Shown: positions 2,296 through 43,897 of the stretch, one piece after another | Layout: each line of letters starts with the position of its first letter | Position numbering within the stretch: position 1 is the first letter of the stretch | Assembly (NCBI GenBank): GCA_041491005.1 | Contig: JBGPUE010000005.1 | Location: forward strand, 1,165 to 65,164 | Source of the DNA: Candidatus Binataceae bacterium | Lineage (GTDB): Bacteria; Desulfobacterota; Binatia; Binatales; Binataceae | Length of the DNA stretch: 64,000 nt | Direction: 5' to 3' | The notes under the pieces: generated by a model | What the model was told of the DNA's origin: nothing | The model's input: only the letters and a program-made list of their open reading frames with translations | Databases searched by the model: none | Position numbers and translations under genes: made by a program

Positions 2296-2377
2296 AATTG
2301 CTCACAGTTGATCGCACTTTCGTATCCTCCCCGAGGCTCAAAGGCCCCAAATCTGTTCGCTGAGCGTGCTGTCTCAT

Positions 2378-2667
2378 AGCTAATCTAAGCTAAACTAAAT
2401 TAAGCTAGTATTCACAAGAGAAGGTTGAGTCAAGTTGATTAGAGATAGAAAAGAATAATAAAAGATGTCATTTCAAGATTACACCTGTTGAATCAGGTCG
2501 TAAGCTATCTCAACATCTAATGACACCAGTCAGGATGGATGAACGGTCGGTCTCTGCGGGATCCGCCGAAATGGTCGAAATAACTGAGGTTTTTCGCCTT
2601 ACGGCTGCGGCGGGCTTGAGGTGCGCAGCGCGATCTGATTCAAAGCAATCGCCTTCAGGGGCGGCGT
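2378..2667. promoter_or_regulatory. AT-rich divergent intergenic region between the collagen-like gene (-) and the MBOAT gene (+); it carries AGCTAA-type motifs also seen in the other AT-rich islands
   Basis: There is a sharp GC drop (tagctaatctaagctaaactaaattaagctagtattcac...aaagaataataaaag), and it sits upstream of both divergent genes. No specific promoter hexamers are confidently assigned. Confidence 0.3.
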
Positions 2668-4074: not shown

Positions 4075-4087
4075 AGACTATTGTGCG

Positions 4088-5290: not shown

Positions 5291-6460
5291 TGGATTGCGC
5301 GGCAGCAGAATTGCGGCGAACCCCGCGAGCCCTGCGCCCATCGAGAAGGCGACGACCGGCCCGGCATGCTGATAGACCACGCCGAAAATCACGCTCGCGG
5401 GCAAGGCGGCCATGCCGACAGCGGCATGGTATGCGCCCAATGCTCGTCCCCGCCATGATTCATCGACCAAGTCGACCACCAGCGCCGTCTCGGCGCCTTC
5501 AGTGAGCCCGAAGAATATTCCATAAGCGGCGAACAGCGCCCACATCTGCCACGGCGCGTTCGCCAGGGCAAAGCCCAGGTATGCGAGCGCGTAGATCGCC
5601 CATCCGGCGAGAATCGGCGCGCGCCGCCCCGCGCGATCGCTCAGCGCGCCACCCCACGTCGAGCTGGACGCCTTCACCACATGCAGGACGATCCAGAGCA
5701 ATGGCGCGTATACCGCCGCGATTCCGATCTCGTTCGCCCGCCACAGCAAAAACGTGTCCGAGGAGCATCCCAGCGTGAACACGAAGACCGAAAGCAGGTA
5801 GCGCCGGAAAATCGGGGACGGCGGTAGTCTGATCGACGGCGGGGGCCCGGCGTCGATCTTCACAGGCCCTGGCGCTCGCCGCACTGATACTGCGAGGATC
5901 AACACGGCGATCAATCCCGGCAGCGCCGTCCATGCGAACACCTCGCGCAGGCCGAGTCCGCCCGCGAGCATCAGATAGGCTGCCAACGGCCCCGCGATCG
6001 CGCCGGCATTGTCGAGTGCGCGATGAAAACCGTAAGCGCGGCCTCGAATTTCAGCTGGGGCCGACGCCGCCAGCAGCGCATCGCGGGGCGGGGTGCGCAA
6101 TCCCTTGCCGACTCGATCGATGAAACGGATCCCGAGCACTTGCGGCCACACACTCACCGCCGACAGCAGTGGCCGGATCAGGCTCGGAATCGCGTACCCG
6201 AACAGCGTCAACCCCTTGAGACGCCCGATCCGATCCGCCATATAGCCCGAGGCGAGCTGCGACAGGCTTGCAGTCGCATCCGCAACCCCCTCGATCGCGC
6301 CGAGCGCCTGCGGACCGCCGCCGAGCATCGCGACGAATCGCGGCAGCAGCGGAATCACCATGTCGCTGGAGGTGTCGTTGAAGAAGGAGACGATACCAAG
6401 CGCGACGACCGTCGCGGGAAGCTGCGGGCGTTTCGCCGCCGCCGCGGCGGATGACTTCAC
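5270..6460 (-). CDS. MFS transporter
   Basis: Hydropathy shows about 12 TM segments with the typical MFS loop motifs (GRLKGLTLFGYAIPSL, DRAGRRAPILAGWAIYAL). Confidence 0.6.
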   Translation of the reverse strand: MKSSAAAAAKRPQLPATVVALGIVSFFNDTSSDMVIPLLPRFVAMLGGGPQALGAIEGVADATASLSQLASGYMADRIGRLKGLTLFGYAIPSLIRPLLSAVSVWPQVLGIRFIDRVGKGLRTPPRDALLAASAPAEIRGRAYGFHRALDNAGAIAGPLAAYLMLAGGLGLREVFAWTALPGLIAVLILAVSVRRAPGPVKIDAGPPPSIRLPPSPIFRRYLLSVFVFTLGCSSDTFLLWRANEIGIAAVYAPLLWIVLHVVKASSSTWGGALSDRAGRRAPILAGWAIYALAYLGFALANAPWQMWALFAAYGIFFGLTEGAETALVVDLVDESWRGRALGAYHAAVGMAALPASVIFGVVYQHAGPVVAFSMGAGLAGFAAILLPRNPSMAARS

Positions 6461-6957
6461 TTGCCCAAGCGGCGTAATTGACGCGGCGTCAGCATCCAGC
6501 TCAGTGTCGCCCCGCCGCGCGGCGAGATCGACGAGAGCTCCAGCGCGATGCAGCCGCCCTTTTTAAGCGTGATGACGGGTGCGTCGGCCGAGCCCGTCAT
6601 CAGCAGCGCCGCTATGTGGCTCAGTCCGGGCTCGTGTCCCACGATCATTACCGAGGCATGGCGCGCATAGGGCGCCAGCGCAGCCACAGACTGGGCCGGC
6701 GAGACTCCGGTAGCGAGCGCCTCGAGCTCTTTCGGCTTTGGCCCGCCGGGAAAGGCCGCGGCGACGATCTCGGCCGTCTCGGCCGCCCGCACCAGCGGGC
6801 TGGTGAGCAGCGATTCGTACTCGACGCCGGCCGCACGTAGTCCGCGCGCAGCCTGGATCATCTTTTGCCGCCCCCCTTCGGTCAGCCGCCGCGCGCCGTC
6901 GTCGCCGTCAGATGCATCGTTCTCGGCCACCGCATGTCGGAGGATATAGAGGATCAT
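6457..6957 (-). CDS. sixA: Phosphohistidine phosphatase SixA-like (histidine phosphatase superfamily)
   Basis: The internal start MILYILRHAVAENDAS carries the RH(A/G) catalytic motif; SPLVRAAETAEIV and GHEPGLSHI match the SixA pattern. The 4-bp ATGA overlap with the upstream CHAD gene supports this start over the longer ORF. Confidence 0.7.
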   Translation of the reverse strand: MILYILRHAVAENDASDGDDGARRLTEGGRQKMIQAARGLRAAGVEYESLLTSPLVRAAETAEIVAAAFPGGPKPKELEALATGVSPAQSVAALAPYARHASVMIVGHEPGLSHIAALLMTGSADAPVITLKKGGCIALELSSISPRGGATLSWMLTPRQLRRLGK

Positions 6958-7928
6958 GAAGCGCTCGCCCTGATAAGCGTCAGCTTTCGCGCCGGCGCGC
7001 TTTGCCCGTGCCTGGTAATGTCGGCCAGCAGCTTGTGCTGAATCGATTTGCAGTCCAGAGCCTTCCACGCTGCTGGTAGGCGGCCGCGCATCTTGCGCAT
7101 CCGTTTTTCCAGGGAATGGATGAGCGCGCCTGCCGCGAGCAGGGTCGTAGCGGGTGTGTTCGAGGTCTCCGCAAAGGTGCGCAGCCACACCACGGTCATC
7201 ACCGCGTCCTGATGATTGCCGAGCACAAGCTGTAACTTGGTCAACCGGTCGAGCGCCCTGCCGACCGTCTTACCGCTGTAGCCCTGCAGGATTTCCAACG
7301 CATAGCGCAACCGTTTGGTGCGCACGCGCAATCTGTGGAGGGCCTGAGCCGGCGAGTCGCGATCGATTTTGCGGCCCGCCCGCAATACCGATCGGAGCAA
7401 CGGTGCGATCAGTTCGGGAGCGACCAGACCCAATGTGGACTCGCGCCCGGCGGCGCCGAAGGCGCCGTCCAACCGACTGACCAGCGCGCGCTGGCGGGGG
7501 GAGCCTGACAGCTCGGCAAGCGCCGCGAGCGCGGCGGCGCGCCGTTCACGAATCGCATGCTCGATCGGACGCAGCGCCGCCTTCATGTGCGGATCCAGCC
7601 GCGGCGCGCGATTGGCGATCACGCCCGCAATCACGTCGAGGTCGCGAACCGCGCCGATCGCCCGTCCCAGCCATGCGAGCTCATGGCGGAGGGCGTCATA
7701 AGCGGCCGGCGGCATCAGCGACGAGAACAGCCGCAGGGCGGCTCGCATCCGCCGCGTCGCCACGCGCATTTCGTGCAGCGGCTCGGTCTCGCCGCCAAAT
7801 GCGTTCTGCTGTTCGCGCCTCAAGGCCTGCAGATGAAAGCCAATCACGGCGCGGGCCGCTGCTGCGAGATTGTCGTTTGGCGGCAGCGCCAGCGTGCGAG
7901 GACGGACGACCCGAGCCAGCGCGCTCAC
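6954..7928 (-). CDS. CHAD-domain protein (polyphosphate-granule-associated conserved histidine alpha-helical domain)
   Basis: It carries the HEMRVATRRMRAALRLF signature and further helical repeats with HRLRVRTKRLRYALE, both typical of CHAD. It overlaps both neighbouring genes by 4 bp. Confidence 0.75.
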   Translation of the reverse strand: MSALARVVRPRTLALPPNDNLAAAARAVIGFHLQALRREQQNAFGGETEPLHEMRVATRRMRAALRLFSSLMPPAAYDALRHELAWLGRAIGAVRDLDVIAGVIANRAPRLDPHMKAALRPIEHAIRERRAAALAALAELSGSPRQRALVSRLDGAFGAAGRESTLGLVAPELIAPLLRSVLRAGRKIDRDSPAQALHRLRVRTKRLRYALEILQGYSGKTVGRALDRLTKLQLVLGNHQDAVMTVVWLRTFAETSNTPATTLLAAGALIHSLEKRMRKMRGRLPAAWKALDCKSIQHKLLADITRHGQSAPARKLTLIRASAS

Positions 7929-8692
7929 TGACTATCCTTGCGCTCGGCAGGCGGCGCTTGTTCGCCGGAATCGGCTCCGGACAGATGAGCGACGCCCCTG
8001 AGATACGACCTGATCCGGGAGCGCAGATCCTTCTGAATCCGCGCAATCGGGCGGCGCGCGTCGACGACGACGAAACCGAACTCGTCCGCCAGCTGGTCGT
8101 ACTGCTCGATTAGCCGATGTTGATAGTTGAGGAACGAATCGAAGATGTCGGTGCCGAGCGCCAGATGCATCCCTGATTCCCAGTAGTCCATGCCCTTGCC
8201 GCCCAGCACCAGCGGCAGGAGATGTTCGACGTCGGTTTGCAGGTACAGAACGAGATCGGGGATCAGCGCCATCCCGAACAGGTCGCGGCTCCATTGCGGA
8301 TCGGCGCCCGCCACGCGATTGCGCGCAAACGCCGTATACATGTAGCGGTCGGCGAGCACGATGAATCCCGCGCGCAGCGCCGGAATGATCTCGTGTTCGA
8401 GGCGATCGGCAAAGTCGGCGGCGTATAGCAGGCTGGAGGTAGTGACGGTCAGCTCGTGGCCGGACTTGGCTTCGCTGATCGTCTCGGACAGCAACGGTGA
8501 CCGCGTCCATCCGGTGCTCGTCACCGCATGTCCTTCGAGTTCAAGCCACGGGCGCAGCAGGTCGATCTGCGTCGAGCGGCCGACGCCGTCGGTACCCTCC
8601 AAGACTATCAGATGGCCGGGCAGCGGCTTGTGATTCTCGAGGTAGGGCAGGCCATGGCCGTACCAGCTCTTGCCGGGCTTATCGTTTGCCAT
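7925..8692 (-). CDS. Thymidylate-kinase-like P-loop nucleotide kinase, paralogue 1
   Basis: It has a Walker A LIVLEGTDGVGRSTQ, a DRY motif (LADRYMYTAFA) and a lid-like region, i.e. the Tmk fold. It also has a ~25-aa N-terminal extension (HKPLPGH) not typical of canonical Tmk. Confidence 0.6.
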   Translation of the reverse strand: MANDKPGKSWYGHGLPYLENHKPLPGHLIVLEGTDGVGRSTQIDLLRPWLELEGHAVTSTGWTRSPLLSETISEAKSGHELTVTTSSLLYAADFADRLEHEIIPALRAGFIVLADRYMYTAFARNRVAGADPQWSRDLFGMALIPDLVLYLQTDVEHLLPLVLGGKGMDYWESGMHLALGTDIFDSFLNYQHRLIEQYDQLADEFGFVVVDARRPIARIQKDLRSRIRSYLRGVAHLSGADSGEQAPPAERKDSQ

Positions 8693-9509
8693 TGAGGTTC
8701 AACCAGGGTCCCGTCCTTTCAGCATGTTCCAGCATTCCCAACGTCATGCTGCGTACGAGCTTCTGTTGGGAAGGAATCGAACCGGTCGCATCGACTACGC
8801 GCAGATCGAACTCCTTGGTGATTTCATCGTAGATTCGCAGCACCCGGCCCTGGAAGAGGCGGAAACTCTCCGCCGGATCTGCCGCCAGCCCGAGATCCAT
8901 CCCCGCTTCGTGATACTTGAGATCGGTGCGGCCTGCGAGCAGGCGCTCCAGAGAGACGTCAATCGGCACGCGGAAGTAAAGCGTCAGATCGGGCCGCGGC
9001 GCGAAGCTGTAGACCGCGCGCACCCAATCGGGATGAACTCCGCGGGCGACATCGCGGCCAAAGGCGGTGAACACATAGCGGTCGGCCAGCACGATCATCC
9101 CGCCCTTGAGCGGCGGCAGAATCTGATAGGCGAGCCGGTCGGCGAAATCGACTGCATGCAGCAGGCTGAAGGTGGTCGGCGTCAGCAGGTCCTTGCGCTT
9201 GCCGCGCTTCATCGAGCGGCGCACCAGCCGCGATGAATTCCACTCCGTGAGATGGACCGGATAGCCGCGCGAGCGCAGCCATCGCTCGAGCAGTAGCAGT
9301 TGCGTGGACTTTCCCGACCCGTCGATGCCCTCGACCGCGATCAGCCGGCCGGGATACGGATGCGGATGGGTCAGCTGGCTGCGGCGCGCCGCGGCCGATG
9401 GCTGGCGGCGCTCGCCTTCACCCGCCCCGCCGCTGTCACTGACGGGCGCAGGATGATCTTGCGATCCAGCAATCGTGACAGTAGATCCGTCCTTCGTTCC
9501 GCTGCCCAT
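8679..9509 (-). CDS. Thymidylate-kinase-like P-loop nucleotide kinase, paralogue 2 (start uncertain; the ORF overlaps the ppx 3' end)
   Basis: It has a Walker A LIAVEGIDGSGKSTQ and DRY (LADRYVFTAFG). Its N-terminal extension HPHPYPGR parallels paralogue 1. The true start is probably an internal alternative start near 9360-9400. Confidence 0.6.
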   Translation of the reverse strand: MGSGTKDGSTVTIAGSQDHPAPVSDSGGAGEGERRQPSAAARRSQLTHPHPYPGRLIAVEGIDGSGKSTQLLLLERWLRSRGYPVHLTEWNSSRLVRRSMKRGKRKDLLTPTTFSLLHAVDFADRLAYQILPPLKGGMIVLADRYVFTAFGRDVARGVHPDWVRAVYSFAPRPDLTLYFRVPIDVSLERLLAGRTDLKYHEAGMDLGLAADPAESFRLFQGRVLRIYDEITKEFDLRVVDATGSIPSQQKLVRSMTLGMLEHAERTGPWLNLNGKR

Positions 9510-10960
9510 AGCTCGAGGTCGGCGCTCTCTTCCCCGCTATCCGCTTCCAGGATGAGCCGGCCGGGTGCGTAGCTGACTCCGAAATCCTTAACCACACTGA
9601 AGTGGCTGCGGTCTACCGCGTCGGCCACGCGCAGGATCGCGGCCAGTCCGCGCACCTGGCGGCGGCGGGGCGGCGTCAGCGACTGCATCTCGGGCGAAGA
9701 CAGCTTGGGCGCCTGCTTGCGATGGCCGCGCGCGGCCTGCGCGATGATTTCGATCTCGGCCGGATCGAAGCCGAGCAATTCGGCATTTTGAATCAGGTAG
9801 TAGCTGTGGTGATTGTGGCGGTCGTGGTCGACCGCATGGCCGACATCATGCAGCAGCGCCGCGTACTCCAGCAGCTCGCGCGACCGGGCGGGCAGGCCGA
9901 GCGCGGGCGCGGTTACATCGAACAGCTTCAGGGCGAGACGCGCGACTTGGCGGCCATGCTCGTTGGTTTCGCTGAAGCGGGCCGCCAGTGCTTCTACTGA
10001 ACGCCGCCGGACCTCGGCGGTGGTCTCGGCGCGCTCGCCGCTGATCTCGGCAAGGTTGAGCAGGACGCCTTCGCGCAGCGCCCAGGTGCATGCGACCAGT
10101 TCGGGCGCGCCCGCGCGGCTCATGATGAAATCGACCAGCACCGCTGCCGCCGGCATCAGGTCGATCCGCTTCGCATCTATTCCGGGGATATCGGCGCGCC
10201 CCGCCGCGTCCTCCGACAATAGTCGCTTGCGCAACCGCGCGATCTCGCTGGCGCTGGCGCTGGCGCCATGCAGCCGGTTCAGCTCCAGGCCCTGCGCTGC
10301 GCGCGCCATCACGATCAGCGCGTTGGCCGTGCCCGAGGTCCCGATCGCGCGTACGACTCCACAATGGCGCACGCGGTCGAGCAGCTCGCCAAGCTCGCGC
10401 TCCAGATGGCGTTCGAGCGCCGCGATATGGCTTGGGCGCGGCGGGTCGGACCTGAGAAATCGCTCGGTCAGGCGCACGACTCCGAGCGGCGCGCTGCGCA
10501 GCAACATCGGATGGCCGTCCTGCACCAGCACCAGTTCGGCGCTGCCGCCGCCGACATCGACCAGCAAATGCGGACCGCCGTCGAGGCCCATCGCATGCCG
10601 CGCCGCGCGCAGAATCAGGCGCGCTTCCTCGGCGCCCGACACGACCTGGACGGCGAGGCCGGTCTCACGCCGCAGCCGCTTGATGAAGATGTCGCGATTG
10701 CGCGCCTCGCGCACCGCGCTGGTAGCGACCGCGCGCACGCGATCGACCTGCCGCACCCGAGCCAGACGCACGAAGTTCTTGAGCGCGCGGACCGCGAGGT
10801 CCATCGCCTCAGGAGTGAGCTTGCCAGTGGTGAATGACCGGCTACCGAGCCGGACCATTTCTTTGACGCGGTCGACGACTTCGAGATGGCCCTCAGGGCT
10901 GACGTCGGCGATCACCATGTGAACCGAGTTCGAGCCGACGTCTATTGCGGCAAGGCGCAC
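9371..10960 (-). CDS. ppx: Exopolyphosphatase / guanosine pentaphosphate phosphohydrolase (Ppx/GppA) with C-terminal HD domain
   Basis: The N-terminus MRLAAIDVGSNSVHMVIADV is the actin-like ATPase fold signature, with DVGGGSAELV. The C-terminal HD motif is LLHDVGHAVDHDRHNHHSYYLI. Confidence 0.85.
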   Translation of the reverse strand: MRLAAIDVGSNSVHMVIADVSPEGHLEVVDRVKEMVRLGSRSFTTGKLTPEAMDLAVRALKNFVRLARVRQVDRVRAVATSAVREARNRDIFIKRLRRETGLAVQVVSGAEEARLILRAARHAMGLDGGPHLLVDVGGGSAELVLVQDGHPMLLRSAPLGVVRLTERFLRSDPPRPSHIAALERHLERELGELLDRVRHCGVVRAIGTSGTANALIVMARAAQGLELNRLHGASASASEIARLRKRLLSEDAAGRADIPGIDAKRIDLMPAAAVLVDFIMSRAGAPELVACTWALREGVLLNLAEISGERAETTAEVRRRSVEALAARFSETNEHGRQVARLALKLFDVTAPALGLPARSRELLEYAALLHDVGHAVDHDRHNHHSYYLIQNAELLGFDPAEIEIIAQAARGHRKQAPKLSSPEMQSLTPPRRRQVRGLAAILRVADAVDRSHFSVVKDFGVSYAPGRLILEADSGEESADLELWAAERRTDLLSRLLDRKIILRPSVTAAGRVKASAASHRPRRAAAS

Positions 10961-19632: not shown

Positions 19633-20565
19633 ATGGAAGTAATCGCGCTTGCCGCGCAAGGCGAAGAAGCCTGCTTGGTCCCCGCGCTGGGATGCCAATG
19701 CCTTCAGTACCGCGTTGGCGCACTGGAAGTGCTTGCGGGTCCGGTGAGCCTCGATGCGCTGCGCGCCGATCCGTGGGCCTGCGGGATGCCGGTGCTCTAT
19801 CCATGGCCCGGGCGAATCGCCGGCGCGCGCTTCACATGGAGCGCGCGCGAGCACCAATTGCCGGTCAACGAACAGACGCGCGGTCATGCGCTGCACGGGC
19901 TCGTCTACGATCGGCCGTTCAACGTCCTCCGCCAGGGCCCGGATTACCTGCAATGCGAACTAAATTGGGGCGAAAGCGCTGCCGAACGAGTCGCATGGCC
20001 GTATCCGTCGCGGTTGCGGCTCGACTACGAAATCGGTAACGGGCTCAGGATACACGCGACGGTCACGAACACCGGCGATCGCACTATGCCGTTCGGGCTC
20101 GGGCTTCATCCATACTTTCGCGCGCCGCTGGGCGCCAACGGGACGCGTGCTGCAATGCGTTTGCGCTTGGACGCCGCCAATCGCTGGCCGCTCGATGAGC
20201 GGCTGGTTCCTGCCGGCCGGCCGGTGCCCGTCACCGGCAAGTACGATCTGCGTTCAGGCCGCGAGCTGGGCGAGGAGTCCTACGACGACGCCTTCACCGC
20301 TATCGCGCCTGACTCCGATGGCGCGATCCGCGCGCTGCTGATCGATCCCGCGCTCCGAGTTGCAGTCGAGGTCGTTTCGGATTCAGGCTTCGCACACTGG
20401 ATGATCTACGCGCCCGGCGATCGCGGCGTGGTCTCGATCGAGCCGTACACCTGCGCCCCTGACGCCTTCAATCTCGCGGCGCGCGGGATGCGATCGGGTC
20501 ATGGCGAACTTCAGCCGGGCCAATCGTGGCAAGGCCGCGTCGAGATTCGGATCGCGCCGGCCTGA
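19633..20565 (+). CDS. Aldose 1-epimerase family protein
   Basis: It carries YPWPGRI, GHALHGLVYDRPF, GLGLHPYFRAP and EPYTCAPDAF, motifs typical of the PF01263 mutarotase-like fold. Confidence 0.75.
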   Translation: MEVIALAAQGEEACLVPALGCQCLQYRVGALEVLAGPVSLDALRADPWACGMPVLYPWPGRIAGARFTWSAREHQLPVNEQTRGHALHGLVYDRPFNVLRQGPDYLQCELNWGESAAERVAWPYPSRLRLDYEIGNGLRIHATVTNTGDRTMPFGLGLHPYFRAPLGANGTRAAMRLRLDAANRWPLDERLVPAGRPVPVTGKYDLRSGRELGEESYDDAFTAIAPDSDGAIRALLIDPALRVAVEVVSDSGFAHWMIYAPGDRGVVSIEPYTCAPDAFNLAARGMRSGHGELQPGQSWQGRVEIRIAPA

Positions 20566-20572
20566 CGAATCA

Positions 20573-20702
20573 GCGGCCTTTGAACTTCGGATCGCGTCGC
20601 TGCGCCAGCGCGCGGACGCCCTCGATAAAGTCCTCGGTCCCGAGCAGCGAACTTTGGGCGAGCGCCTCGAGCTCCATGAAGGTCATTTTGTCCAGCCTGG
20701 AT
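20573..20702. repeat. Diverged (~90% identical) duplicate of the last ~43 codons of the enoyl-CoA hydratase gene (direct repeat partner of 22098..22228)
   Basis: I aligned 20573-20702 and 22098-22228 by eye; they differ only by scattered substitutions (e.g. stop TGA vs TAG). The translated copy is GLDKMTFMELEALAQSSLLGTEDFIEGVRALAQRRDPKFKGR. Confidence 0.8.
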
Positions 20703-20716
20703 CACGGCCTCCCGAA

Positions 20717-21469
20717 TTAGAAAACGTTTCGGACTGCCTTCCCAATGAACAATGGAAGGCCGGCTGGGACAAATTCACCGCCTGGCGCTGAGAATGGGCC
20801 GATGAGGTTGCCGATGGTGGGCTCCGGAGCGGTTGGCGAGAGTGCCTTGATGAACAACTCGAAGTCCCTACTGTTGCGCTCAAGGTTTTCCTTCGTACAG
20901 GACGGGCCGCAGAACTCCAAAACGACGAAGACTGCCGCAGCTGCTGCATGTTCTGCTGCAAAAATCAGGGACGCGGCTGTCCCGTGCAGCAACTGATAGC
21001 GCAGGTTGTTGATCCCCGGACCTGCATCGCCGAGCACGGCCTTGGCAAGAGTCGCGATTCTCTTCGGGACGTTCGACTTCGCAGAAGCCGCTGTCAGCGT
21101 CTCACCGATGGTGCCGCCGAACGATTCGTCTGCCTTGGCCTCAATCGTCACGGCGACCTTTCCGATGCTGCTCTCTCCGATAGCCGCCAAGTCCGCGTTT
21201 CTTGTCTCGCCTGGAAATCGGTCGAGGGCGATCTTGTGTTCAGGAAAGGCAGCCGTGAGGTCGACCGTCCCGAGTCCCCGATGCGATGAGAGGAGGGCGC
21301 GGAGCTCGGGCGGCACGGCGGGAACGCCACTCTCAAGAAAGATTTTTGCGAGCTCCTTGGCACTTCGACCGCCGACCCATTGGCGACGTCCCTCCTTCGG
21401 AGGAGCGAACTGAAACCATTCGTCGACGGTGGTTATCTCGTGGCCGTCTTTCTGAATCCGAAGATCCAT
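20717..21469 (-). CDS. Hypothetical protein, islet cargo; possible PD-(D/E)xK-type nuclease motif
   Basis: It is a 250-aa ORF in a lower-GC segment. It has a D...(V/I)EAK arrangement (ADLAAIGESSIGKVAVTIEAKADESFG) reminiscent of restriction-endonuclease-like folds. No family was recognised with certainty. Confidence 0.45.
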   Translation of the reverse strand: MDLRIQKDGHEITTVDEWFQFAPPKEGRRQWVGGRSAKELAKIFLESGVPAVPPELRALLSSHRGLGTVDLTAAFPEHKIALDRFPGETRNADLAAIGESSIGKVAVTIEAKADESFGGTIGETLTAASAKSNVPKRIATLAKAVLGDAGPGINNLRYQLLHGTAASLIFAAEHAAAAAVFVVLEFCGPSCTKENLERNSRDFELFIKALSPTAPEPTIGNLIGPFSAPGGEFVPAGLPLFIGKAVRNVF

Positions 21470-21772
21470 GCGCGCCTCATCATTTGTTCGGGATTCCTAC
21501 GCTTGGGGAACTTCCAGAGCTAGCCCTAGCTCCAAGATTTCGATGTTCCGGATCGATGCGGCGGCTTGTCCGCCCTTGGTCCAGTTCGCTTTAACTTCGA
21601 TTACTGGGATTCTGAGCTGGGCCGCCGCTTCTCGCGCCAAACGTGTCCCACTCCTCTCGCTCCGCCTTCACCCAAGGTTAGAGGAGCAAGGAACCCGCTC
21701 CAAGATTGCTATTGCCCGCTTGATGGGCTCCTTGTCTGACCAGTTCCGGTCCCCGGCAATCAGAAGCTTCAT
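21470..21772 (-). pseudogene. Frameshifted/truncated remnant of a DUF2493 / YpsA-like SLOG-domain gene
   Basis: On the minus strand MKLLIAGDRNWSDKEPIKRAIAILERV then hits a stop. A second frame continues AAAQLRIPVIEVKANWTKGGQAAASIRNIEIL, which matches the C-terminal ...W.k.G.aAg.iRN... pattern of DUF2493 proteins. This is from memory of the family consensus. Confidence 0.35.
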
Positions 21773-21785
21773 GGTTGATTCTGTA

Positions 21786-22019
21786 TCACCCGTATAGCCG
21801 TATCGCATTATCCCGGGTCCACATGTTCGACTCGCCGGCGATGTCGTACCCGCAGTTGCGGATCATTATGGGTATGAGTGCGCAGGATGACGCTTTTCCC
21901 GCGTCGCATTCGGTTTTGAACTTCGCTATGAGCTCAGTGGCCTGCCTCCCGCTCTCGCGTTGGGCTGCGGTTGCACAACCTGTGGTCAGGATCAGGAAGA
22001 CAAGGATTAGGCTTGTCAT
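21786..22019 (-). CDS. Small putative secreted/lipoprotein (77 aa, Cys-containing)
   Basis: An internal start gives MTSLILVFLILTTGCATAAQRE (signal peptide plus Cys). It lies in the low-GC islet, and its coding status is uncertain. Confidence 0.3.
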   Translation of the reverse strand: MTSLILVFLILTTGCATAAQRESGRQATELIAKFKTECDAGKASSCALIPIMIRNCGYDIAGESNMWTRDNAIRLYG

Positions 22020-22097
22020 TTGCTCGTCTCCTTCCGATTTTTCCCCCTTGCTCAGGATGACGGACATAGTTCCCGAAGTCATTTGCGAGGCACCACG

Positions 22098-22904
22098 CTA
22101 GCGGCCCTTGAACTTCGGATCGCGGCGCTGCGCAAGCGCGCGGGCGCCCTCGATGAAGTCCTCGGTTCCGAGCAATGAGCTCTGCGCGAGCGCCTCGAGC
22201 TCCATGAAGGTCATTTTGTCCAGCCCATAGCCGCGGTCGATGAGTTTTTTAGCGAGCCCGACGGCGAGCGGCGCATTGCGCGCCATCTCGCGCGCGAGTT
22301 CCTCGGCGGCCGCGATATGCTCACCAGCAGCGACCACGCGATTGACCAACCCGATGCGCGCAGCCTCGTCGGCGTCGATCAAGCGCGCCGTCATGATCAG
22401 CTCCTTGGCGCGCGCGTAGCCCACTGTTCGCGTCAGCCGCGTGCTGCCGCCGACATCGGGGACCAGACCGAGCCGCACCTCCGGCATCCCCAGCCGCGTG
22501 CCGGCGGCTGCGATGCGTGCATCACAAGCGAGCGCCAGCTCCAGCCCGAGCCCCCCGGCGTAGCCGTGAATCGCGCCGATCACCGGCTTTTCAAGCGCCT
22601 CGATGCGGTTGAGCACGGCCTGCGATGCGGCCACGGATTGGCGAAAGCGGGCGAGGTTTGGCCGCCCGCCACCTTCGGAGCCCCCGCCGTCAGAGGAGAT
22701 CGATGTAAAGTCGAGGCCCGCCGAAAAGACCGCGCCCTCGCCGAATACAATAATCGCGCGCACGTCGGGTTGGTCGGCCTTCGTAAGCGCCTCGTCCAGC
22801 GCCCGCATCACGGCAGCGCTGATCGCATTGCGCTTCTCGGGCCGATTGAGCGCCACGTATGCCAGTTCGCCTTCGATGCGGACCTTGACCATCTCTTCAG
22901 TCAT
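22098..22904 (-). CDS. Enoyl-CoA hydratase/isomerase (crotonase family)
   Basis: The start MTEEMVKVRIEGELAYVALNRPEKRNAIS, the oxyanion-hole region VFGEGAVFSAGLD and GAIHGYAGGLGLELALACD identify it. Its last ~130 bp are duplicated at 20573-20702. Confidence 0.85.
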   Translation of the reverse strand: MTEEMVKVRIEGELAYVALNRPEKRNAISAAVMRALDEALTKADQPDVRAIIVFGEGAVFSAGLDFTSISSDGGGSEGGGRPNLARFRQSVAASQAVLNRIEALEKPVIGAIHGYAGGLGLELALACDARIAAAGTRLGMPEVRLGLVPDVGGSTRLTRTVGYARAKELIMTARLIDADEAARIGLVNRVVAAGEHIAAAEELAREMARNAPLAVGLAKKLIDRGYGLDKMTFMELEALAQSSLLGTEDFIEGARALAQRRDPKFKGR

Positions 22905-23053
22905 CGCGGGAACCTCTCTGGATGAATTGAGGACGAACCGATTGCTGCCGGCCAAGTCTAGCCGACTGCGACGCGATTGCCACCCGCCGACGGGAGATTT
23001 GCGATACGCGCGAGCCGCGTGTTATGCAGGAAAACCTCCGGGAGGACGTGCGA

Positions 23054-24002: not shown

Positions 24003-24060
24003 ACCCTCACCCTGACCCTCGCCCGCTCTTTTGCGGGAGAGGGACAGGGTGAGGGTTCTG
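24003..24060. repeat. REP-like palindromic element (ACCCTCACCCTGACCCTCGCCCGC-tcttttg-CGGGAGAGGGACAGGGTGAGGGT)
   Basis: The hairpin was read directly. It shares the GGGAGAGGG..GGGTGAGGG module with the repeats at 29409-29452 and 29689-29735. Confidence 0.55.
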
Positions 24061-32323: not shown

Positions 32324-33061
32324 ATGCTAACCTCGGCTGTGATGGACCTCGCCAAGCCCTGCATCGACGTCGGGCTCTTCACCAATCGGCTCGATGAAAT
32401 GCGCACCTTCTACGCCGAGCGGATCGGACTGCCGTTCGAGGAGATGCTGCCGGTGGGCGGCGGCGTGCGACAGTATCGCTTCGGACTGCGCGGCTCGGTG
32501 CTGAAGATCAACCATGCGCGCGACCCGCTCCCAGAGCGGCAGCCGGGCGGATACGCTCGGCTGATCATCGCGGATCGGCGGCTGCCGATGCGGATGGGGA
32601 TGCGCGATCCGGACGGCAACGAGCTCGAACTGCTGCCGCCCGGCCATTTCGACATTCAGCAGATCGAAGTCCATCTCCGCGTCCGCGACGAGGCCGCCTT
32701 CGATCATTTCTACGGCCAGGCGCTTGGATGCGAGCGTATAGGGCCGCATCGCTTCCGGCTCGGCGAGACTATCGTGAGCTTCGAGGGCGATGCTGCGCTG
32801 CCGCGCGCCGAGGCGCGGGCTGCGGTCGGGGCGGCCGAGGCGATCGCCTCGATGCGCGCGGTCGGATTTCGCTACATCACGATCCAGGTCCGCGATTGTG
32901 ATGCAGAGCATCGCCGCCTGCTTGCGATGGGCGTGAGCGAGGGGTCGCCGCCGGTCACGCTAGGCGCGGTCGCGCGCATCTCGTTCGTGCGCGATCCAGA
33001 CGGTAACTGGATCGAGATTTCCCAGCGCGCATCGCTGACCGGTTCGAGCGCACCAGACTAG
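32324..33061 (+). CDS. VOC-family (glyoxalase/bleomycin-resistance/dioxygenase-like) two-module protein
   Basis: Two beta-alpha-beta-beta-beta-like modules are visible (IDVGLFTNRLDEMRTFYAERIGL... and QQIEVHLRVRDEAAFDHFYGQALG...). The start is placed at an internal Met (MLTSAVMDLAK). Confidence 0.6.
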   Translation: MLTSAVMDLAKPCIDVGLFTNRLDEMRTFYAERIGLPFEEMLPVGGGVRQYRFGLRGSVLKINHARDPLPERQPGGYARLIIADRRLPMRMGMRDPDGNELELLPPGHFDIQQIEVHLRVRDEAAFDHFYGQALGCERIGPHRFRLGETIVSFEGDAALPRAEARAAVGAAEAIASMRAVGFRYITIQVRDCDAEHRRLLAMGVSEGSPPVTLGAVARISFVRDPDGNWIEISQRASLTGSSAPD

Positions 33062-33129
33062 GGCCGTCGCCAACCTCTCCCGCCCGACGACATACTGGGC
33101 AAATCCCGATCGGGCGTTCTTCTCCCACG

Positions 33130-33611
33130 GGGCCTTCAACCGCGATGATTCTAGCGCGCTTGAACGTGGCTTCATTTGTCGGCGCTTCCTAAAAGCGGCA
33201 GCGGCCATCTTAGCTTAGACACGTTCTTTCAACTTTTCGTATTTAAACTGTGATTTACTTGACTTGTTGTACGATTGTTTACTATTACTTATGCGGTCTT
33301 TAGAGAACTTGGCCTAAATCGGAGCTAATCGATGGCGCATCAAGTCTTCATGCCTCTGTACCTCCTTACGCTAACTGCATTTTGCTGCTGGCTGATCGCA
33401 GCTGCGGCACAAGCCGGAAGCCGATTGGCGGCCTTGGCATGGGGTCGGCGGTTGGCAGCGGTCAAAGGTGACAAGGCTCTACGTCGCTCTGTTTCGAGCG
33501 GTTTAACTGGTGAGGGATAAGGGCAAATCGCCAGGTTTTGCTTGACATTAACTAGCATTACTTATTATTGCCTACAGTGTTTTTACAAGTCTTGCGTTTA
33601 CTGGAGATCTG
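33130..33611. promoter_or_regulatory. AT-rich upstream region of the exopolysaccharide locus with candidate sigma70-like promoter elements
   Basis: There is a strong GC drop. It contains ttgacttgttgtacgattgtttactattactta and, nearer the Wza start, gcttgacattaactagcattacttattattg. The hexamer assignments are tentative. Confidence 0.3.
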
Positions 33612-34373
33612 ATGCCCTTCACTGCCAGATATGGGGCCGCCAAAGCCCTGTTGTGCGCCATCGGTCTGCTCGCATTTGCGGGCTGCTCGAACAGCGCGAA
33701 CAGCAGTGACGACGTGGCGCGTGCGAGCGTCAGCGGTGGGGGAGTCGAGCAATGCGCGGGCATGATGTCGGCCGCAATGACGGTCGAAGAGGATGAATCG
33801 AATTATCGGATCAAACCCGGCGACGACTTGGCGGTCAATTTTTATCTGAACACCGAGTTCAACGATGAGGTGACGGTGCGTCCGGACGGCAAGATCAGCT
33901 TGCGCCTGGTTGGCGAGATCAACGCCCGCGATTTGACGCCGGCGCAGCTCGCGGCAAACATCGACAAGGCCTACGCCGACGAACTTCGCGATCCTGGCGC
34001 GACCGTTCACGTCAAGGGCAGCCCGAGCCGGCGGATCTATGTGCACGGCGAAGTGGTAAAGCCGGGCGCTCTTCCGCTTCAACCCCGGATGACCGCCGTG
34101 CAGGCAGTGGCGGAGTCGGGCGGATTGACGCCTGATGCCGGCGCCGATCGCGCCATCCTGATGCGCCGTGACGCCTGTGGCCAGCCTTACGGGATCCCGT
34201 TCAATCTCGACCACGCCGCACACGAGGGCAGTTCCCACGATGACTTGGTGCTGCTGCCCGGTGACGTGATCGTGGTGCCGCGTTCGAAGGTCGCCGACAT
34301 CGGGTTATTCGTGAAGCACTACTTCAAGGACCTGCTCCCGGTTAACCCCTACATACCGCTGGTGCCTTTCTAG
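33612..34373 (+). CDS. Outer-membrane polysaccharide export lipoprotein (Wza/GumB/EpsE-like; PES domain plus SLBB)
   Basis: It has the lipobox LAFAGC and the YRIKPGDDLAVNFYLNTEFNDEVTVRPDGKISLRLVGEINARDLTPAQL signature of the Poly_export domain. Confidence 0.8.
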   Translation: MPFTARYGAAKALLCAIGLLAFAGCSNSANSSDDVARASVSGGGVEQCAGMMSAAMTVEEDESNYRIKPGDDLAVNFYLNTEFNDEVTVRPDGKISLRLVGEINARDLTPAQLAANIDKAYADELRDPGATVHVKGSPSRRIYVHGEVVKPGALPLQPRMTAVQAVAESGGLTPDAGADRAILMRRDACGQPYGIPFNLDHAAHEGSSHDDLVLLPGDVIVVPRSKVADIGLFVKHYFKDLLPVNPYIPLVPF

Positions 34374-34393
34374 GGCGAGGAAGGGAGCAGCAG

Positions 34394-35908
34394 ATGACGG
34401 TCCAGCAAATATTCGAATCCTGGCTTGAACTGGCCTTCAGGCGGCGCACCACTGTTTCGCGCGTCGCGGTGGCGGTGTTCGGCACGGTGTTCGTGCTGAC
34501 GATGCTGTGGCCGCCGCTGTACCAGTCCAGCAGCAAAATCATGATCCAGATCAATCGCGCCAACCTGTTGGTTTCACCCGGACTGGAGACCGGTGCGGCC
34601 AATCCAGCCAACGTGATTGCCGCTCCGGTCGACGAGCAGGACTTGAACTCCGAAATCGAACTGCTCACCAGCCGTCAGCTCGTCGAGCACGCCCTGGAGG
34701 GCCTGACCGACAGCAAACATCAGAGCTTCATGGGCCGCATGGTTTCGATGATCAAGAGCGTGATCGACCTGCCGGGATCGGTGTACGGCGTGCTGCACAG
34801 CTCGCCGGAGATGACGCCGCGCCAGCAATGGGCCAGCGAGCTGGCTGCACGGTTATCGTCCTCGGTGATCAAGCGTTCGAATGTCATCGAAGTGGACTTC
34901 CGCGCGCACGATCCGCAGTGGGCCGAAACCTTCCTGCGGCGGCTGCTCGATCAGTACATGGAGTTCCACGCGCGGATCTCGCAAGACCCGCAGACCGAGA
35001 GGTTCTTCCAGCAACAGTCAGAGATTTTGCAGGAAAGGCTGCGCCGCTCCGAAGAGAAGCTCAAAGCACTCGAGCTGCAGACCGGCATCACTTCGCTGGC
35101 CGAGCAGAAGCAGGCGCTGGTCACGCAGCTGTCTTCCTTCGAAGCCGAATACCGCAGGAACAAGGCGCTGCTGGCGGCCACCCAGCAGCAGGTTGTCTCG
35201 CTGGGTGTCGAACTGGGCAAGAGCCCTGAGAAGAGCACGCGCGAGTCCAAGGTCGTCCAGAACAACGCTCTGCAACAGCTCAAGCCCCAAGTGATGGCGA
35301 TGGAGGCGGAGCGCGCCGAGCTGCTCAGCCGCTACACGCCGACCAGCGCGCGCATTCGTGAAATCGACGCCAAGCTGGACGCCGCCCGCAAGATCCTCCA
35401 CCGCGAGAATCAGAGCGAGGTTCAAGAGACCAACATCGGCGTCAACCCGATATGGGAACAACTCAGCGGCAAGCTTGCAGAGGCGCGCGTCGCGGTCGCC
35501 TCGATCGGTTCCAACCAGGAAGCGCTTCAACAGCAGATTGAGGAGTATCGCGAACAGCTCAAGGCGCTCGCCACCGATGGCATCGAAGTCGAGCGGCTGC
35601 AGCGCCAGGTCGAAACCGACAAGGAAGCCTACCTGTCATACACCCGCAAGGGCGAAGAAGCGCGCGCGGCCCAGGCCCTGAACCAAAGCAAGATTCTTAA
35701 CGTCACCATCGTCGAAGCGCCGACCCAGCCGTTGCATCCGGTTTCGCCGCGTCTGGAAGTCAACCTTGCGGCGGGGCTCGTATTCGCGATCGCACTGGCG
35801 CTCGGCATCGCATGGTGGGAAGAACGCCGCGACCCGCGCATTTACTCGGAGGCCACCATCGCGGAAGTAACCGGGCTCAAAACCATCGCCGCTCTGCCGC
35901 AATCCTGA
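34394..35908 (+). CDS. Polysaccharide chain-length determinant protein (PCP-2/GumC/ExoP N-terminal type, no kinase domain)
   Basis: It has an N-terminal TM, a long periplasmic coiled-coil region and a C-terminal TM (LAAGLVFAIALALGIAWW), the typical Wzz/Wzc N-domain layout. Confidence 0.75.
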   Translation: MTVQQIFESWLELAFRRRTTVSRVAVAVFGTVFVLTMLWPPLYQSSSKIMIQINRANLLVSPGLETGAANPANVIAAPVDEQDLNSEIELLTSRQLVEHALEGLTDSKHQSFMGRMVSMIKSVIDLPGSVYGVLHSSPEMTPRQQWASELAARLSSSVIKRSNVIEVDFRAHDPQWAETFLRRLLDQYMEFHARISQDPQTERFFQQQSEILQERLRRSEEKLKALELQTGITSLAEQKQALVTQLSSFEAEYRRNKALLAATQQQVVSLGVELGKSPEKSTRESKVVQNNALQQLKPQVMAMEAERAELLSRYTPTSARIREIDAKLDAARKILHRENQSEVQETNIGVNPIWEQLSGKLAEARVAVASIGSNQEALQQQIEEYREQLKALATDGIEVERLQRQVETDKEAYLSYTRKGEEARAAQALNQSKILNVTIVEAPTQPLHPVSPRLEVNLAAGLVFAIALALGIAWWEERRDPRIYSEATIAEVTGLKTIAALPQS

Positions 35909-35923
35909 TGGTGCTGAAAAAAG

Positions 35924-37393
35924 ATGTACTACCAGCACTTCGGACTTAGCGGCCATCCCTTCCTGCTGACGCCTGACCCTGCGCTGCTCTACATGAGCTC
36001 GGCGCATCGTGAGGCGCTGGCGGCGCTGGAATGGGGACTCAGCGAGCCCAGCGGCCTGACGCTGATGGTGGGCGAGGTGGGCACGGGCAAGACCACGCTC
36101 ATCCACTCACTGTTGCTGCGCCATCATGAGGGCGTCCGGCCGGTCGTCATCAGCCAGCCGACGCTCGCCTTCGAGGAGATGCTACGCCTGATTCTCGCCC
36201 AACTGGGCATCAAGCCGGCGGCGGCAGCGACCCGCTTCGAGATGATCCAGGCGCTGAGCAATTCGCTGGCTGCACTGAAATCCAGCGAACGGATCGCATT
36301 GATCATCGATGAATCGCAGGCGCTCAGCGATGCGACGCTGGAGGAGTTGCGCCTGCTCTCCAATCTTTCGATCGGCGACCACGCACCACTTCAGATCGTA
36401 CTGGTCGGCCAGATCGACCTGCTGCGGCGGCTCAATACGCCGACGCTGCGCCAGCTCAACCAGCGCATCGGCGCCCGCGCGCTGCTGCTGTCGCTGAACT
36501 ACTCGGAGGCGTATGGCTATGTCGAGCACCGCCTCCAGCTCAAGGGACGCAGTTCGGACGAAGTGTTTACCCGCGGCGCCTTGCGCCGCATCGTGTACCA
36601 CGGCCGCGGCATTCCGCGGCGCATCAACGTACTCGGCCACAATTCGATGACGCTGGCGTACGCGGCGGGCGCCAGCCGCGTCAGCGCCGCGATGGCGCAG
36701 GCGGCCGCCGCGGAGTACGACGACCTGCTCAAAGCGAACCGGCCGAGCCTGGCCTTGGTCTGGCAGTCGCTGGCGCGCTTCATCCTGCGGCCTGCCGCGT
36801 CCGGCCGCCGCGGCCCCAGGCCGCTTCAGGTCGTGCTTGCGCTGCTGGCGATCGGGGCAATTCTCAGCCCGGTGGTGAGCCGCTGGAACCGAATCGACGC
36901 CACGCTTGCCCATCTGAAGTCTCGCGCCGAGCACGAGCTCGGCTCTTCGATGAACGATACGCGACGCGCGGCGGCGGTCGCTGAGGAGCAGTTGCGCACT
37001 GCAAGCACGAGCCTGGTCTCGGGCGGCGGCGACGAACCGCAACTCACAGCCAATCCGGCCCCGGTTCGCGCTCCAGTTAGCGCGCCGCAGAGCGACCAGC
37101 ACGCCGCGGGCACGGCAGAGCTGTTTGCCCACGTGGCCCAAACGGCCTCGGCTCCCGGCGCTAGCACGGCGCAGCCGGCCGCCGAAGACGGCCAGAGTGC
37201 CGATGAACTAAATGTCGTGGTCCGGCCGGGCGACACCCTGAGCGGCATCGCGCTGACGCATCTTGGGTCAAACCGGACTTCGCTGGTTGCCAAACTCCTT
37301 GAAGCCAACCCGCAGATCAGCAACGCGGACGTGATCCATCCCGGCCAGCGCCTCAATCTGCCGTCCGTCAACCAGCCGTCGGTACGGGAGTAG
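35924..37393 (+). CDS. ExeA/GspA-like AAA ATPase with C-terminal LysM domain (resembles the PEP-CTERM-locus secretion ATPase)
   Basis: It has Walker A GEVGTGKTT in the N-terminal ATPase module (MYYQHFGLSGHPF...) and a C-terminal LysM (VVRPGDTLSGIALTHLGSNRTSLVAKLLEANPQISNADVIHPGQRLNLP). Confidence 0.75.
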   Translation: MYYQHFGLSGHPFLLTPDPALLYMSSAHREALAALEWGLSEPSGLTLMVGEVGTGKTTLIHSLLLRHHEGVRPVVISQPTLAFEEMLRLILAQLGIKPAAAATRFEMIQALSNSLAALKSSERIALIIDESQALSDATLEELRLLSNLSIGDHAPLQIVLVGQIDLLRRLNTPTLRQLNQRIGARALLLSLNYSEAYGYVEHRLQLKGRSSDEVFTRGALRRIVYHGRGIPRRINVLGHNSMTLAYAAGASRVSAAMAQAAAAEYDDLLKANRPSLALVWQSLARFILRPAASGRRGPRPLQVVLALLAIGAILSPVVSRWNRIDATLAHLKSRAEHELGSSMNDTRRAAAVAEEQLRTASTSLVSGGGDEPQLTANPAPVRAPVSAPQSDQHAAGTAELFAHVAQTASAPGASTAQPAAEDGQSADELNVVVRPGDTLSGIALTHLGSNRTSLVAKLLEANPQISNADVIHPGQRLNLPSVNQPSVRE

Positions 37394-37398
37394 AAGCA

Positions 37399-38169
37399 TT
37401 GGCCAAATTTTTCGAAGCGCTGAAACGTTACGAAGCCGAGCAGGCGCTCGAGCACACCCCGGTGCCCGAGACCCGGCCGGTCCGCAATCTAAGCGCCGTC
37501 GAGATGCCGGCGTTGCTGACCCCGGTGCCGGTTGGACCCGCCGTGCCGGGGCATCTCGCGCGTGCCGACGGGATACGCCATCTGACCGAAAAAATAGCGC
37601 CGCTGGCGTGCCTCAACAGCGCCATCCGGCTGGGCATCAGCGGCTGCCGTCCCGGCGACGGGGCGTCGAGCGTCGCCGCAAGTATCGCGATCGATTTGAG
37701 CCAGCGTCTGGCGCTGAGAATCCTGCTGCTCGACGCGCATCTGCGCCACCCGAGCCTGTTCCGGATGTTCTCGATCAGCGACCCGATGATCGCGGAGGCG
37801 ACGCCGAGCACGCGAGTGCTGATTCGACCCACGCGCTGGCCGCGGCTGGATGTGGCGAGCTGTATGCCGCCGGCCGAGCGCGAGCATCAGCAACGGTTTT
37901 TCGAGGATACCGAGCAGCTTATCAACCGCTATCCGATCGTCGTCATCGATCTCGGCGTGCTGCGGCTTGACGCGCGCATGCTGCCGCTGGCGCGCGCCAC
38001 CGATCCGATCCTGCTGATCGTGCGCTACGGCTACACCGAGCGGCGCGAGCTGGCCACCACCGCGACCGCGCTGGCGGCCGCCAATCGACAAATCGGCGGC
38101 GTGGTACTCAACGCCCGGCGCAGACCGGCCCCGGCTTTCGTTGATCGCATTTTCGGCACAGGAGCCTGA
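37399..38169 (+). CDS. BY-kinase/MinD-like P-loop protein with degenerate Walker A (Lys replaced by Ala); putative pseudo-kinase
   Basis: The region GISGCRPGDGASSVAASIAIDL aligns to the BY-kinase Walker A xxSxxPGEGKSTxxxNLA but has GAS in place of GKS. The Walker A'-like VVIDLG and the B-like DPILLIVRYGYT are retained. It has a TTG start and lies immediately after the ATPase gene. Confidence 0.55.
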   Translation: MAKFFEALKRYEAEQALEHTPVPETRPVRNLSAVEMPALLTPVPVGPAVPGHLARADGIRHLTEKIAPLACLNSAIRLGISGCRPGDGASSVAASIAIDLSQRLALRILLLDAHLRHPSLFRMFSISDPMIAEATPSTRVLIRPTRWPRLDVASCMPPAEREHQQRFFEDTEQLINRYPIVVIDLGVLRLDARMLPLARATDPILLIVRYGYTERRELATTATALAAANRQIGGVVLNARRRPAPAFVDRIFGTGA

Positions 38170-38171
38170 TA

Positions 38172-39272: not shown

Positions 39273-39273
39273 G

Positions 39274-40934: not shown

Positions 40935-40947
40935 GCGGCGCCGAACG

Positions 40948-43895: not shown

Positions 43896-43897
43896 TT

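Follow-up and report, generated by a model that had tools for sequence, protein, structure and literature searches.

An insertion at the 3' end of a crotonase gene in Candidatus Binataceae with an apparent replacement gene end and a predicted nuclease of the DUF6946 family

In Escherichia coli, the cryptic prophage e14 is flanked by the icd gene and the pseudogene icdC (PMC13626634). When the two borders of e14 were measured for the present analysis in the K-12 strain MG1655, the repeated gene end was found to comprise 166 nucleotides (nt) with 92.8% identity, and the 11 codons which differ between the copies consist of nine synonymous differences and two exchanges of Asp to Glu. Elements which have retained the sites attL and attR without genes for integration or transfer are designated cis-mobilizable elements (CIMEs) (PMC5704250). 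The subject of this paper is a stretch of DNA from a Candidatus Binataceae bacterium (GenBank assembly GCA_041491005.1, contig JBGPUE010000005.1, positions 1,165 to 65,164 of the forward strand), in which an islet encoding a predicted PD-(D/E)xK nuclease of the DUF6946 family is located at the 3' end of a gene for an enoyl-CoA hydratase (crotonase). The whole stretch analysed, with a length of 64,000 nt, is called the window, and positions refer to it unless another locus or contig is named by its L number. It was shown that the islet is an insertion into the crotonase 3' end and that relatives lack it at the orthologous locus. Taken alone, it is a clear example from the uncultivated Binataceae of a known trick, by which an element inserts into the end of a gene and repairs this gene with its own copy.

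The orthologous site is empty in three related Binataceae lineages (L011-L020), where a crotonase gene, whose product is 77-80% identical to the one of the window, is directly convergent on the gene for aldose-1-epimerase (Aldose_epim). The conserved gene order in these relatives is xanthine-dehydrogenase-like, ThiS, SnoaL, (Usp), crotonase, convergent aldose epimerase, RRM and further genes, with crotonase and epimerase either overlapping by 14 nt or lying 20 nt apart. Since the relatives keep this synteny without the segment, the 1.5 kb represent lineage-specific added DNA. In total, 1528 bp were added, composed of about 1.4 kb of cargo and a replacement gene end of 88 nt. Ancestrally, crotonase has the epimerase as its convergent neighbour, and the stop codon of the crotonase relic on the far side of the cargo is positioned 4 nt from the convergent epimerase stop, which is the same layout as in the empty sites of the relatives. 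An insertion at this gene end had been proposed in an earlier note on the stretch, together with a comparison to empty sites, and was borne out by the three lineages. Crotonase orthologues with 74-80% identity are annotated as enoyl-CoA hydratase of Binataceae. A second difference at the locus was observed on the other side of crotonase, where the window (22956-23023) does not contain the gene for a zinc-type alcohol dehydrogenase that is present immediately upstream of crotonase in the relatives (L011 4903-5958, L014 4897-5952, L017 4871-5926).

One long direct repeat was identified in the islet region, the right copy of which coincides with the crotonase 3' end and the left copy of which is located just past the epimerase stop. 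By repeat search and MAFFT alignment, this repeat comprises 126 nt (20572-20697 and 22100-22225) with 91.3% identity, without gaps and at a spacing of 1528 nt; the earlier note had described about 130 bp with some 90% identity, and its coordinates shift by only ~1-3 nt. At the gene-proximal end of the repeat, a core of 40 nt is identical in both copies. Within the window, this 40-mer, GGCTGGACAAAATGACCTTCATGGAGCTCGAGGCGCTCGC, is present at the two core positions given in Table 1 and nowhere else, with 0 occurrences expected from shuffled sequences. All 11 mismatches fall into the 86 nt toward the stop and none into the core (P = 0.013). Read in the crotonase frame, the left copy has retained 42 codons, LDKMTFMELEALAQSSLLGTEDFIEGVRALAQRRDPKFKGR, and a stop. 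The exchange of TAG for TGA, also claimed before, was confirmed by frame translation, which located TGA of the relic at 20570-20572 and TAG of the functional crotonase at 22098-22100. The order at the locus is thus body, core, foreign tail, cargo, core and native tail. The repeats of the window do not fold better than shuffled sequences (z about 0).

Outside the core, the two tails differ in 11 sense codons, ten of which are synonymous and one of which is an exchange of Ala to Val in the left copy, in addition to TAG versus TGA. For random substitutions in these codons, the chance of being synonymous is 0.24-0.32, giving P about 1e-5 to 2e-4 for at least 10 of 11 synonymous differences under neutrality. 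Because ten of the 11 differences are synonymous and both stops were kept, the tails represent two working alleles which diverged before the insertion. TGA is used by the relic and by all relatives, and the right copy alone ends in TAG; the relic tail is also the one still joined to the native downstream context. The relatives match each copy at about half of the 11 variable sites, and therefore neither copy can be regarded simply as the other one in decayed form. These data show that the tail was replaced and that the replacing tail is of foreign origin, as the earlier note had proposed for the 3' end carried by the element, the native tail having been left beside the convergent epimerase. 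The tails thus diverged in separate lineages as functional alleles, one of which was brought in by the insertion, and the stranded relic has hardly changed since then, with the Ala-to-Val exchange as the only candidate for a later change. The earlier view that the diverged repeats indicate an old and decayed insertion was not upheld, since the differences are almost exclusively synonymous and both stops are intact. More generally, divergence at synonymous sites only provides a simple test which separates an imported tail from an old, decayed duplicate.

The islet is probably a small integrated cassette of the CIME type, devoid of an integrase, which entered by a single crossover of a circle carrying a foreign crotonase tail; moderate confidence is placed in this reading. 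In its favour, the values measured at the borders of e14 are almost equal to those of the islet, the cargo is of foreign composition, and duplicated gene ends also bracket DUF6946 at other genes, as described below. The circle would have contained the core, the foreign tail and the cargo, with a crotonase 3' end derived from a different, moderately related lineage. One conservative, reciprocal crossover of the Campbell type between this circle and the chromosome, with its body, core and native tail, would have occurred within the shared block of 40 nt. As a result, crotonase would end in the incoming tail and stay intact, the native tail of the host would be stranded as a pseudogene beyond the cargo, and the two copies of core plus tail would be equivalent to attL and attR. 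Since the cassette encodes no recombinase, either an integrase encoded at another place would have mobilized it in trans, or it would be the stripped remnant of a larger element, similar to a CIME. We infer a circular intermediate, the position of the crossover and the involvement of a site-specific integrase.

Two other explanations for the structure were found to be very improbable. The repeated 40-mer might have served to join two sequences into a chimeric contig, and the contigs L004-L006 and L010, assembled from short reads, do end within the core, because the core is an assembly repeat. However, the whole structure was recovered at 99.2-100% identity in a JGI metagenome contig of 98.7 kb, in two metagenome-assembled genomes (MAGs) from NCBI and in several short-read runs from Logan, with the contigs L001, L008 and L009 crossing both junctions, and the tails differ, hence the copies are not collapsed duplicates. 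Because the structure recurs with 99% identity or more in these independent assemblies, the islet is not an assembly artefact, the chance of which is practically negligible. Hardly more credit can be given to a tandem duplication of the gene end in situ with later capture of unrelated DNA between the copies, which the earlier note had offered as its alternative. Direct repeats of host sequence bracketing a cargo are what such a duplication would leave. The copies would have been identical at the beginning, and for about 10 synonymous changes, some 16 non-synonymous ones are predicted by our estimate in a drifting relic, where one was seen, and both stops were kept; the duplication thus fails the same test as the decayed insertion, and the composition of the cargo is foreign.

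The main rival to the integrated cassette is general homologous recombination, which would lead to the same product without a dedicated integrase. In one version, a circle with the donor tail would have arisen in a related donor, by loop-out or aberrant excision, and would then have been integrated at the identical 40-nt block through one RecA-dependent crossover; in the other, a double crossover would have transferred a donor locus in which the duplication already existed, the right-hand exchange falling within the relic core. For either version speak the lack of a recombinase gene nearby and an exchange in the only long stretch of perfect identity, the mismatch-rich tail being unused. In addition, the core is a conserved segment of the gene for which identity between lineages is expected, and other DUF6946 cassettes, described below, target unrelated genes or sequences, which fits homology of captured host DNA better than the specificity of one integrase. 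On the other hand, a first event joining the cargo to the crotonase tail in the donor is required and left unexplained, 40 nt are close to the lower limit for efficient exchange by RecA, gene ends are the classic targets of integrases, and the e14 benchmark matches quantitatively. On balance, recombination of this general kind is considered a possible but unlikely origin. Several further observations weigh against the integrated cassette. Neither tyrosine nor serine recombinases were found among the islet ORFs (open reading frames), in the JGI Pfam annotation of the window between 10.7 and 31.5 kb, or in 30 further window ORFs searched with Pfam, a few short or unscanned ORFs remaining; the 30 ORFs belong mostly to an exopolysaccharide cluster and to housekeeping genes. 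The statement of the earlier note that no integrase remains therefore holds for this range. No excised circle, no unoccupied site from the same population and no donor allele were found: all six places where the exact DUF6946 protein occurs and all four with the exact epimerase protein carry the islet or a part of it, and none is empty. The core is naturally conserved within the gene, as L011 with its 80% identical orthologue differs at only 2 of 40 positions, and for this reason its perfection is weaker evidence for a defined att core; recombination of the RecA type on 40 nt of identity would yield the same product. Finally, a related cassette behind a URO-D-family gene consists of only 826 nt with essentially DUF6946 alone, which is hard to explain by chance decay of large elements. 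The parent element was also sought in IMG/VR, from which the core pattern of crotonase is absent.

Table 1. Features of the islet and its borders in the window (positions on the forward strand)
Feature	Position	Strand	Remarks
Host aldose-1-epimerase gene	19633..20565	+	Pfam Aldose_epim E 3.2e-37; synteny in L011-L020; far side of target site
Displaced native crotonase tail (relic), 29 codons + TGA	20570..20657	-	one A->V change; 38-aa ORF per gene callers
Left core copy, 40 nt, attR-equivalent side	20658..20697	-	identical to right core copy
Spacer of ~19 nt, DUF6946 stop to relic copy	20698..20716	-	inner end of insert; repeat alignment
DUF6946 gene, 250 aa, predicted PD-(D/E)xK nuclease	20717..21469	-	intact; Pfam E 5.5e-34
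SLOG (YAcAr/DUF2493-type) pseudogene	21497..21772	-	in-frame TGA 21668-21670; HGGxxGAD-type motif degraded; C-terminus truncated
Putative lipoprotein gene, 77 aa	21786..22019	-	lipobox LTTGC; good GGAAGGAG ribosome-binding site upstream; GC at third codon positions 0.69
Chimeric enoyl-CoA hydratase (crotonase) gene	22098..22955	-	functional; Pfam ECH_1 E 1.6e-51
Replacement 3' tail, 29 codons + TAG (88 nt)	22098..22185	-	insert-supplied; cargo directly after
Right core copy, 40 nt, attL-equivalent side	22186..22225	-	identical to 20658-20697; probable crossover region
Crotonase host body	22226-22955	-	core and element-supplied tail come after

The true start of the crotonase gene is likely the ATG at 22904, giving a protein of 268 aa. 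All three cargo genes are located on the crotonase strand and, because they lie downstream of crotonase on this strand, could be cotranscribed with it; a scan of the islet for promoters and terminators revealed nothing above chance. The lower GC content between the copies, reported before, was found again with a value of 0.58 for 20699-22097 compared to a window median of 0.64, corresponding to the 3.4th percentile of windows of 1.4 kb. At third codon positions (GC3), the cargo genes reach 0.66-0.69 versus 0.75-0.82 in the neighbouring genes. Although real, the dip is modest, and elsewhere in the window, four stretches have values just as low. Among such stretches, 60400-61700, 33000-33300 and 53000-53500 have a GC content of 0.55-0.58, and the ORFs tested there either had no Pfam match or belong to ordinary families, with no recombinase among them.

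The protein of 250 aa in which the earlier note had seen a PD-(D/E)xK-like motif belongs to the DUF6946 family. This family was assigned to the PD-(D/E)xK clan CL0236, and neither a nuclease activity nor a target of it is known (PMC10584680). The residues D83, D93, E110 and K112, which are conserved in the family, are present in the protein of the window, and an AlphaFold2 model was obtained with a predicted local distance difference test score (pLDDT) of 95.5. The islet thus encodes a protein with a nuclease fold, as a homing endonuclease gene would require. For the SLOG remnant, the family assignment of the note was retained, and its proposed frameshift was replaced by an in-frame TGA and a truncation of the C-terminus: separately, the pieces give a weak Pfam match, and joined through the stop, they cover positions 1-65 of 66 of YAcAr (PF10686) with E 1.4e-5, at a score of 25.3 bits which is below the gathering score of 28.2. 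SLOG proteins of this type are associated with mobile elements, and the pseudogene is a hint that a larger mobile element was the ancestor of the islet. The small Cys-containing lipoprotein was identified as described by the note; it had no Pfam match and no homologue besides itself in 5.8 billion proteins. For DUF6946 and the lipoprotein, no match was obtained in PADLOC or PHROGs.

Genes for DUF6946 have also been identified in many other bacteria. A survey was carried out on 84 non-redundant DUF6946 loci from many phyla, comprising 807 kb, for direct repeat pairs of at least 60 nt with at least 80% identity at a spacing of 0.3-3 kb. Such pairs bracket DUF6946 in six of the 84 loci, in addition to one tandem duplication, with ~0.4 expected by our own rough estimate of the background; inverted pairs were found once. 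About 90% of the loci contain no flanking repeat, and a metagenome scan revealed additional repeat-bracketed cases. In all clear cases, the downstream repeat copy begins 1-41 nt past the DUF6946 stop. Close homologues of the DUF6946 protein (68-80% identity) are encoded by genes with a GC content of 0.53-0.63 in hosts with a flanking GC content of 0.50-0.69. In collections of phages and plasmids, DUF6946 was absent from 50,697 phage records, weakly represented in five plasmids and present in five IMG/VR contigs.

One case is L021 (7552-8517), where a 74% identical DUF6946 follows an unrelated gene of the URO-D family in another organism. Here, the last 70 nt of the URO-D gene including the stop recur 17 nt past the DUF6946 stop with 94% identity, and 826 nt lie between the copies. 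The same URO-D element is present in L116 (2353-3290) and L120 (about 700-790); in the relic of L116, only the core of 35-41 nt is kept before the sequence diverges, and the upstream tail travels with the element. The spacer between DUF6946 and the repeat is 16-18 nt in L021, L116 and L120, comparable to the window. In L128 (1184-5151), an islet of 3.6 kb with genes for an HNH endonuclease, DUF6946 and a DUF5655 protein is located between the 3' tail of a HIT gene and a degenerate, 79% identical copy of this tail, without an integrase. Gene heads are duplicated in other cases. In two Vicinamibacterales genomes (L065 4838-5953, L109 3788-5922), the 5' end of a PQQ/BamB-like gene harbours DUF6946, and the head of this gene is present in duplicate over 150-175 nt with 87-88% identity. 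The repeats of L065 enclose about 965 nt with DUF6946 as the only content, and a tandem duplication of 1080 nt in L109 has given rise to two DUF6946 copies. The duplicated piece is the head of a TPR gene in L075 and sequence of no identified kind in L084 and L155/L156.

A different context was identified in L097 (2600-9300) and L162 (3833-4818), where DUF6946 is present as an integron-type cassette with repeats of ~120-200 nt that start with CCTAAC, have a GTTAG(G) core close to the opposite end and are true attC sites. An array of these repeats, at intervals of roughly 1 kb, is present in L097, and the repeat of L162 folds into a long hairpin (z = -5.5). Further observations were made on the surroundings of the family. 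In a MAG of Candidatus Binatia (L060 4842-5450), a truncated DUF6946 pseudogene with 74% identity is located 84 nt downstream of tRNA-Asn, and no repeat of the tRNA-Asn end was found there. The closest homologue with context (79%) lies beside DUF6998 in a prophage-like block with a LexA-like repressor, DUF3799, AAA_24 and DUF669 (L025/L113, about 600-9800). Other direct-repeat pairs with different cargo are located a few hundred bases to ~1 kb from DUF6946 in L086 (6684-9228) and L029 (6198-7114); one is 136 nt long and, judged by eye, resembles coding sequence of the OST-HTH type, and the other one comprises 60 nt around a NUDIX gene. Repeat-bracketed cassettes may thus cluster together.

These findings raise the possibility that the DUF6946 nuclease itself provides the mobility of a new kind of minimal element with a single gene, which inserts at gene ends and carries or creates the duplicate of the gene end, by which the host gene survives. 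The excess of bracketed loci over the rough background, the smallest cassettes with DUF6946 alone (L021 and L065), the tight 3' boundary, the GC content which homologues keep as their own across hosts and the intact catalytic residues would be consistent with such a role. However, every subsequence of the empty allele persists in the filled one, and a homing enzyme with the empty site as its target would cut its own host; PD-(D/E)xK hydrolases are not known to perform conservative integration. Moreover, DUF6946 is a passenger of ordinary integron cassettes in L097 and L162, the large majority of loci are free of flanking repeats, other cargo in the neighbourhood is bracketed by comparable gene-end duplications (L086, L029), and L128 holds the additional genes for HNH and DUF5655. 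A driving role of the nuclease is therefore regarded as quite improbable. Slightly less doubtful, and still no more than a tentative proposal, is the wider idea that DUF6946 marks an undescribed class of minimal cassettes of 0.8-1.5 kb, frequently with one gene only and without a recombinase, which are located at the 3' or 5' ends of unrelated genes in several phyla with a diverged replacement end; either the nuclease would participate in their integration or maintenance, or a system acting in trans would move them.

In any case, a nuclease family of unknown function is repeatedly the sole or main cargo of small insertions without an integrase and with duplicated ends of host genes, and it is found as an integron cassette as well. 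Should the gene-end cassettes be a mobile unit, they would rank with the smallest known integrative units that carry genes, which would raise the question of their mover. If they are remnants, selection would keep the nuclease while the element is lost, suggesting a role in defence or addiction.

The window contains several other features. On the minus strand at 179-2389, an ORF of 736 aa codes for collagen triple-helix repeats (Pfam Collagen E 5.7e-74), with periodic repeats of 9 and 27 nt at about 600-1600 and a low GC3 of 0.57. A second, highly repetitive coding region, 55048-56690, lies within an ORF of 1164 aa on the plus strand (53562-57056) and has a periodicity of 12 and 18 nt and a pair of 300 nt with 68% identity. 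The exopolysaccharide cluster extends from 33500 to 53400 and codes for Poly_export, GNVR, an AAA_22/LysM protein, a DegT aminotransferase, Bac_transf, a flippase, glycosyltransferases, Wzy_C and a beta-helix protein. Between the SnoaL-like and ThiS-like genes, a near-perfect inverted repeat of 24 nt with a loop of 6 nt was identified at 24003-24056 (ACCCTCACCCTGACCCTCGCCCGC / GCGGGAGAGGGACAGGGTGAGGGT).

Among the described systems which leave repeats around a gene, some were rejected for the islet. A diversity-generating retroelement with template and variable repeats (TR/VR) does not fit, as no reverse transcriptase domain was found and the mismatches, located at third codon positions, are mixed in type. 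A target-site duplication by a transposon is contradicted by the 11 mostly synonymous sites which distinguish the copies, by the lack of a transposase and by the lack of terminal inverted repeats among the repeat pairs. Integron gene cassettes share with the islet a single promoterless ORF, a recombination site which follows closely, and similar repeats as brackets. The repeats of the islet differ in being host coding sequence without R''/R' core sites, and an attC site was rejected, since the repeats of the window and of L021 fold at z about 0 compared to the strongly folding attC control of L162.

Free-standing homing endonuclease genes include ones of the PD-(D/E)xK type such as I-Ssp6803I. 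Like the islet, they place a small nuclease gene of foreign composition tightly between or within host genes, and they do so across distant hosts. In contrast to the islet, homing leaves no duplicated target. Simple homing was also rejected on the basis of the reconstructed empty allele, all subsequences of which (body to core, core to tail and tail to downstream) are present in the filled allele, so that the latter is not immune; cleavage-based homing would be self-destructive, because the sequence of the empty site survives intact. SXT/R391 integrative and conjugative elements (ICEs) are inserted at the 5' end of prfC, where the element supplies a new 5' end. They are the counterpart of the DUF6946 cassettes at gene heads (L065/L109, L075) with their insertion at the 5' end, and they differ in a size of about 100 kb and an integrase of their own, whereas the case in the window concerns a 3' end.

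By definition, the islet fits a CIME, because equivalents of attL and attR are kept without genes for integration or transfer. The CIMEs of the streptococcal families of ICEs and of integrative, mobilizable elements (IMEs) differ in that no related ICE or IME is known that shares the target of the islet, and that the islet has far longer repeats (126 nt), the tails of which are heterologous. The closest system remains the insertion of e14 and phage 21 at icd. Here, also, the insertion is located in the 3' end of a metabolic gene, a tail supplied by the element keeps the gene functional, and the displaced native tail is kept as a pseudogene at the other border. As in e14, the tails of the islet differ mostly at synonymous sites, with nine synonymous and two conservative differences in e14 and ten synonymous and one non-synonymous difference in the islet. 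The islet shares with the e14 type the empty site, the direct repeats of the gene end at both borders and the allele-like divergence, and lacks an integrase of its own: e14 comprises 15.2 kb with intE and xisE, while the islet adds 1.5 kb without a recombinase. Target gene and host phylum are different, and the excision of e14 has been documented, whereas the islet is known from its sequence alone. In this comparison, the islet is a small, integrase-less form of the known tail-replacing integration, at a new target and in an uncultivated lineage.

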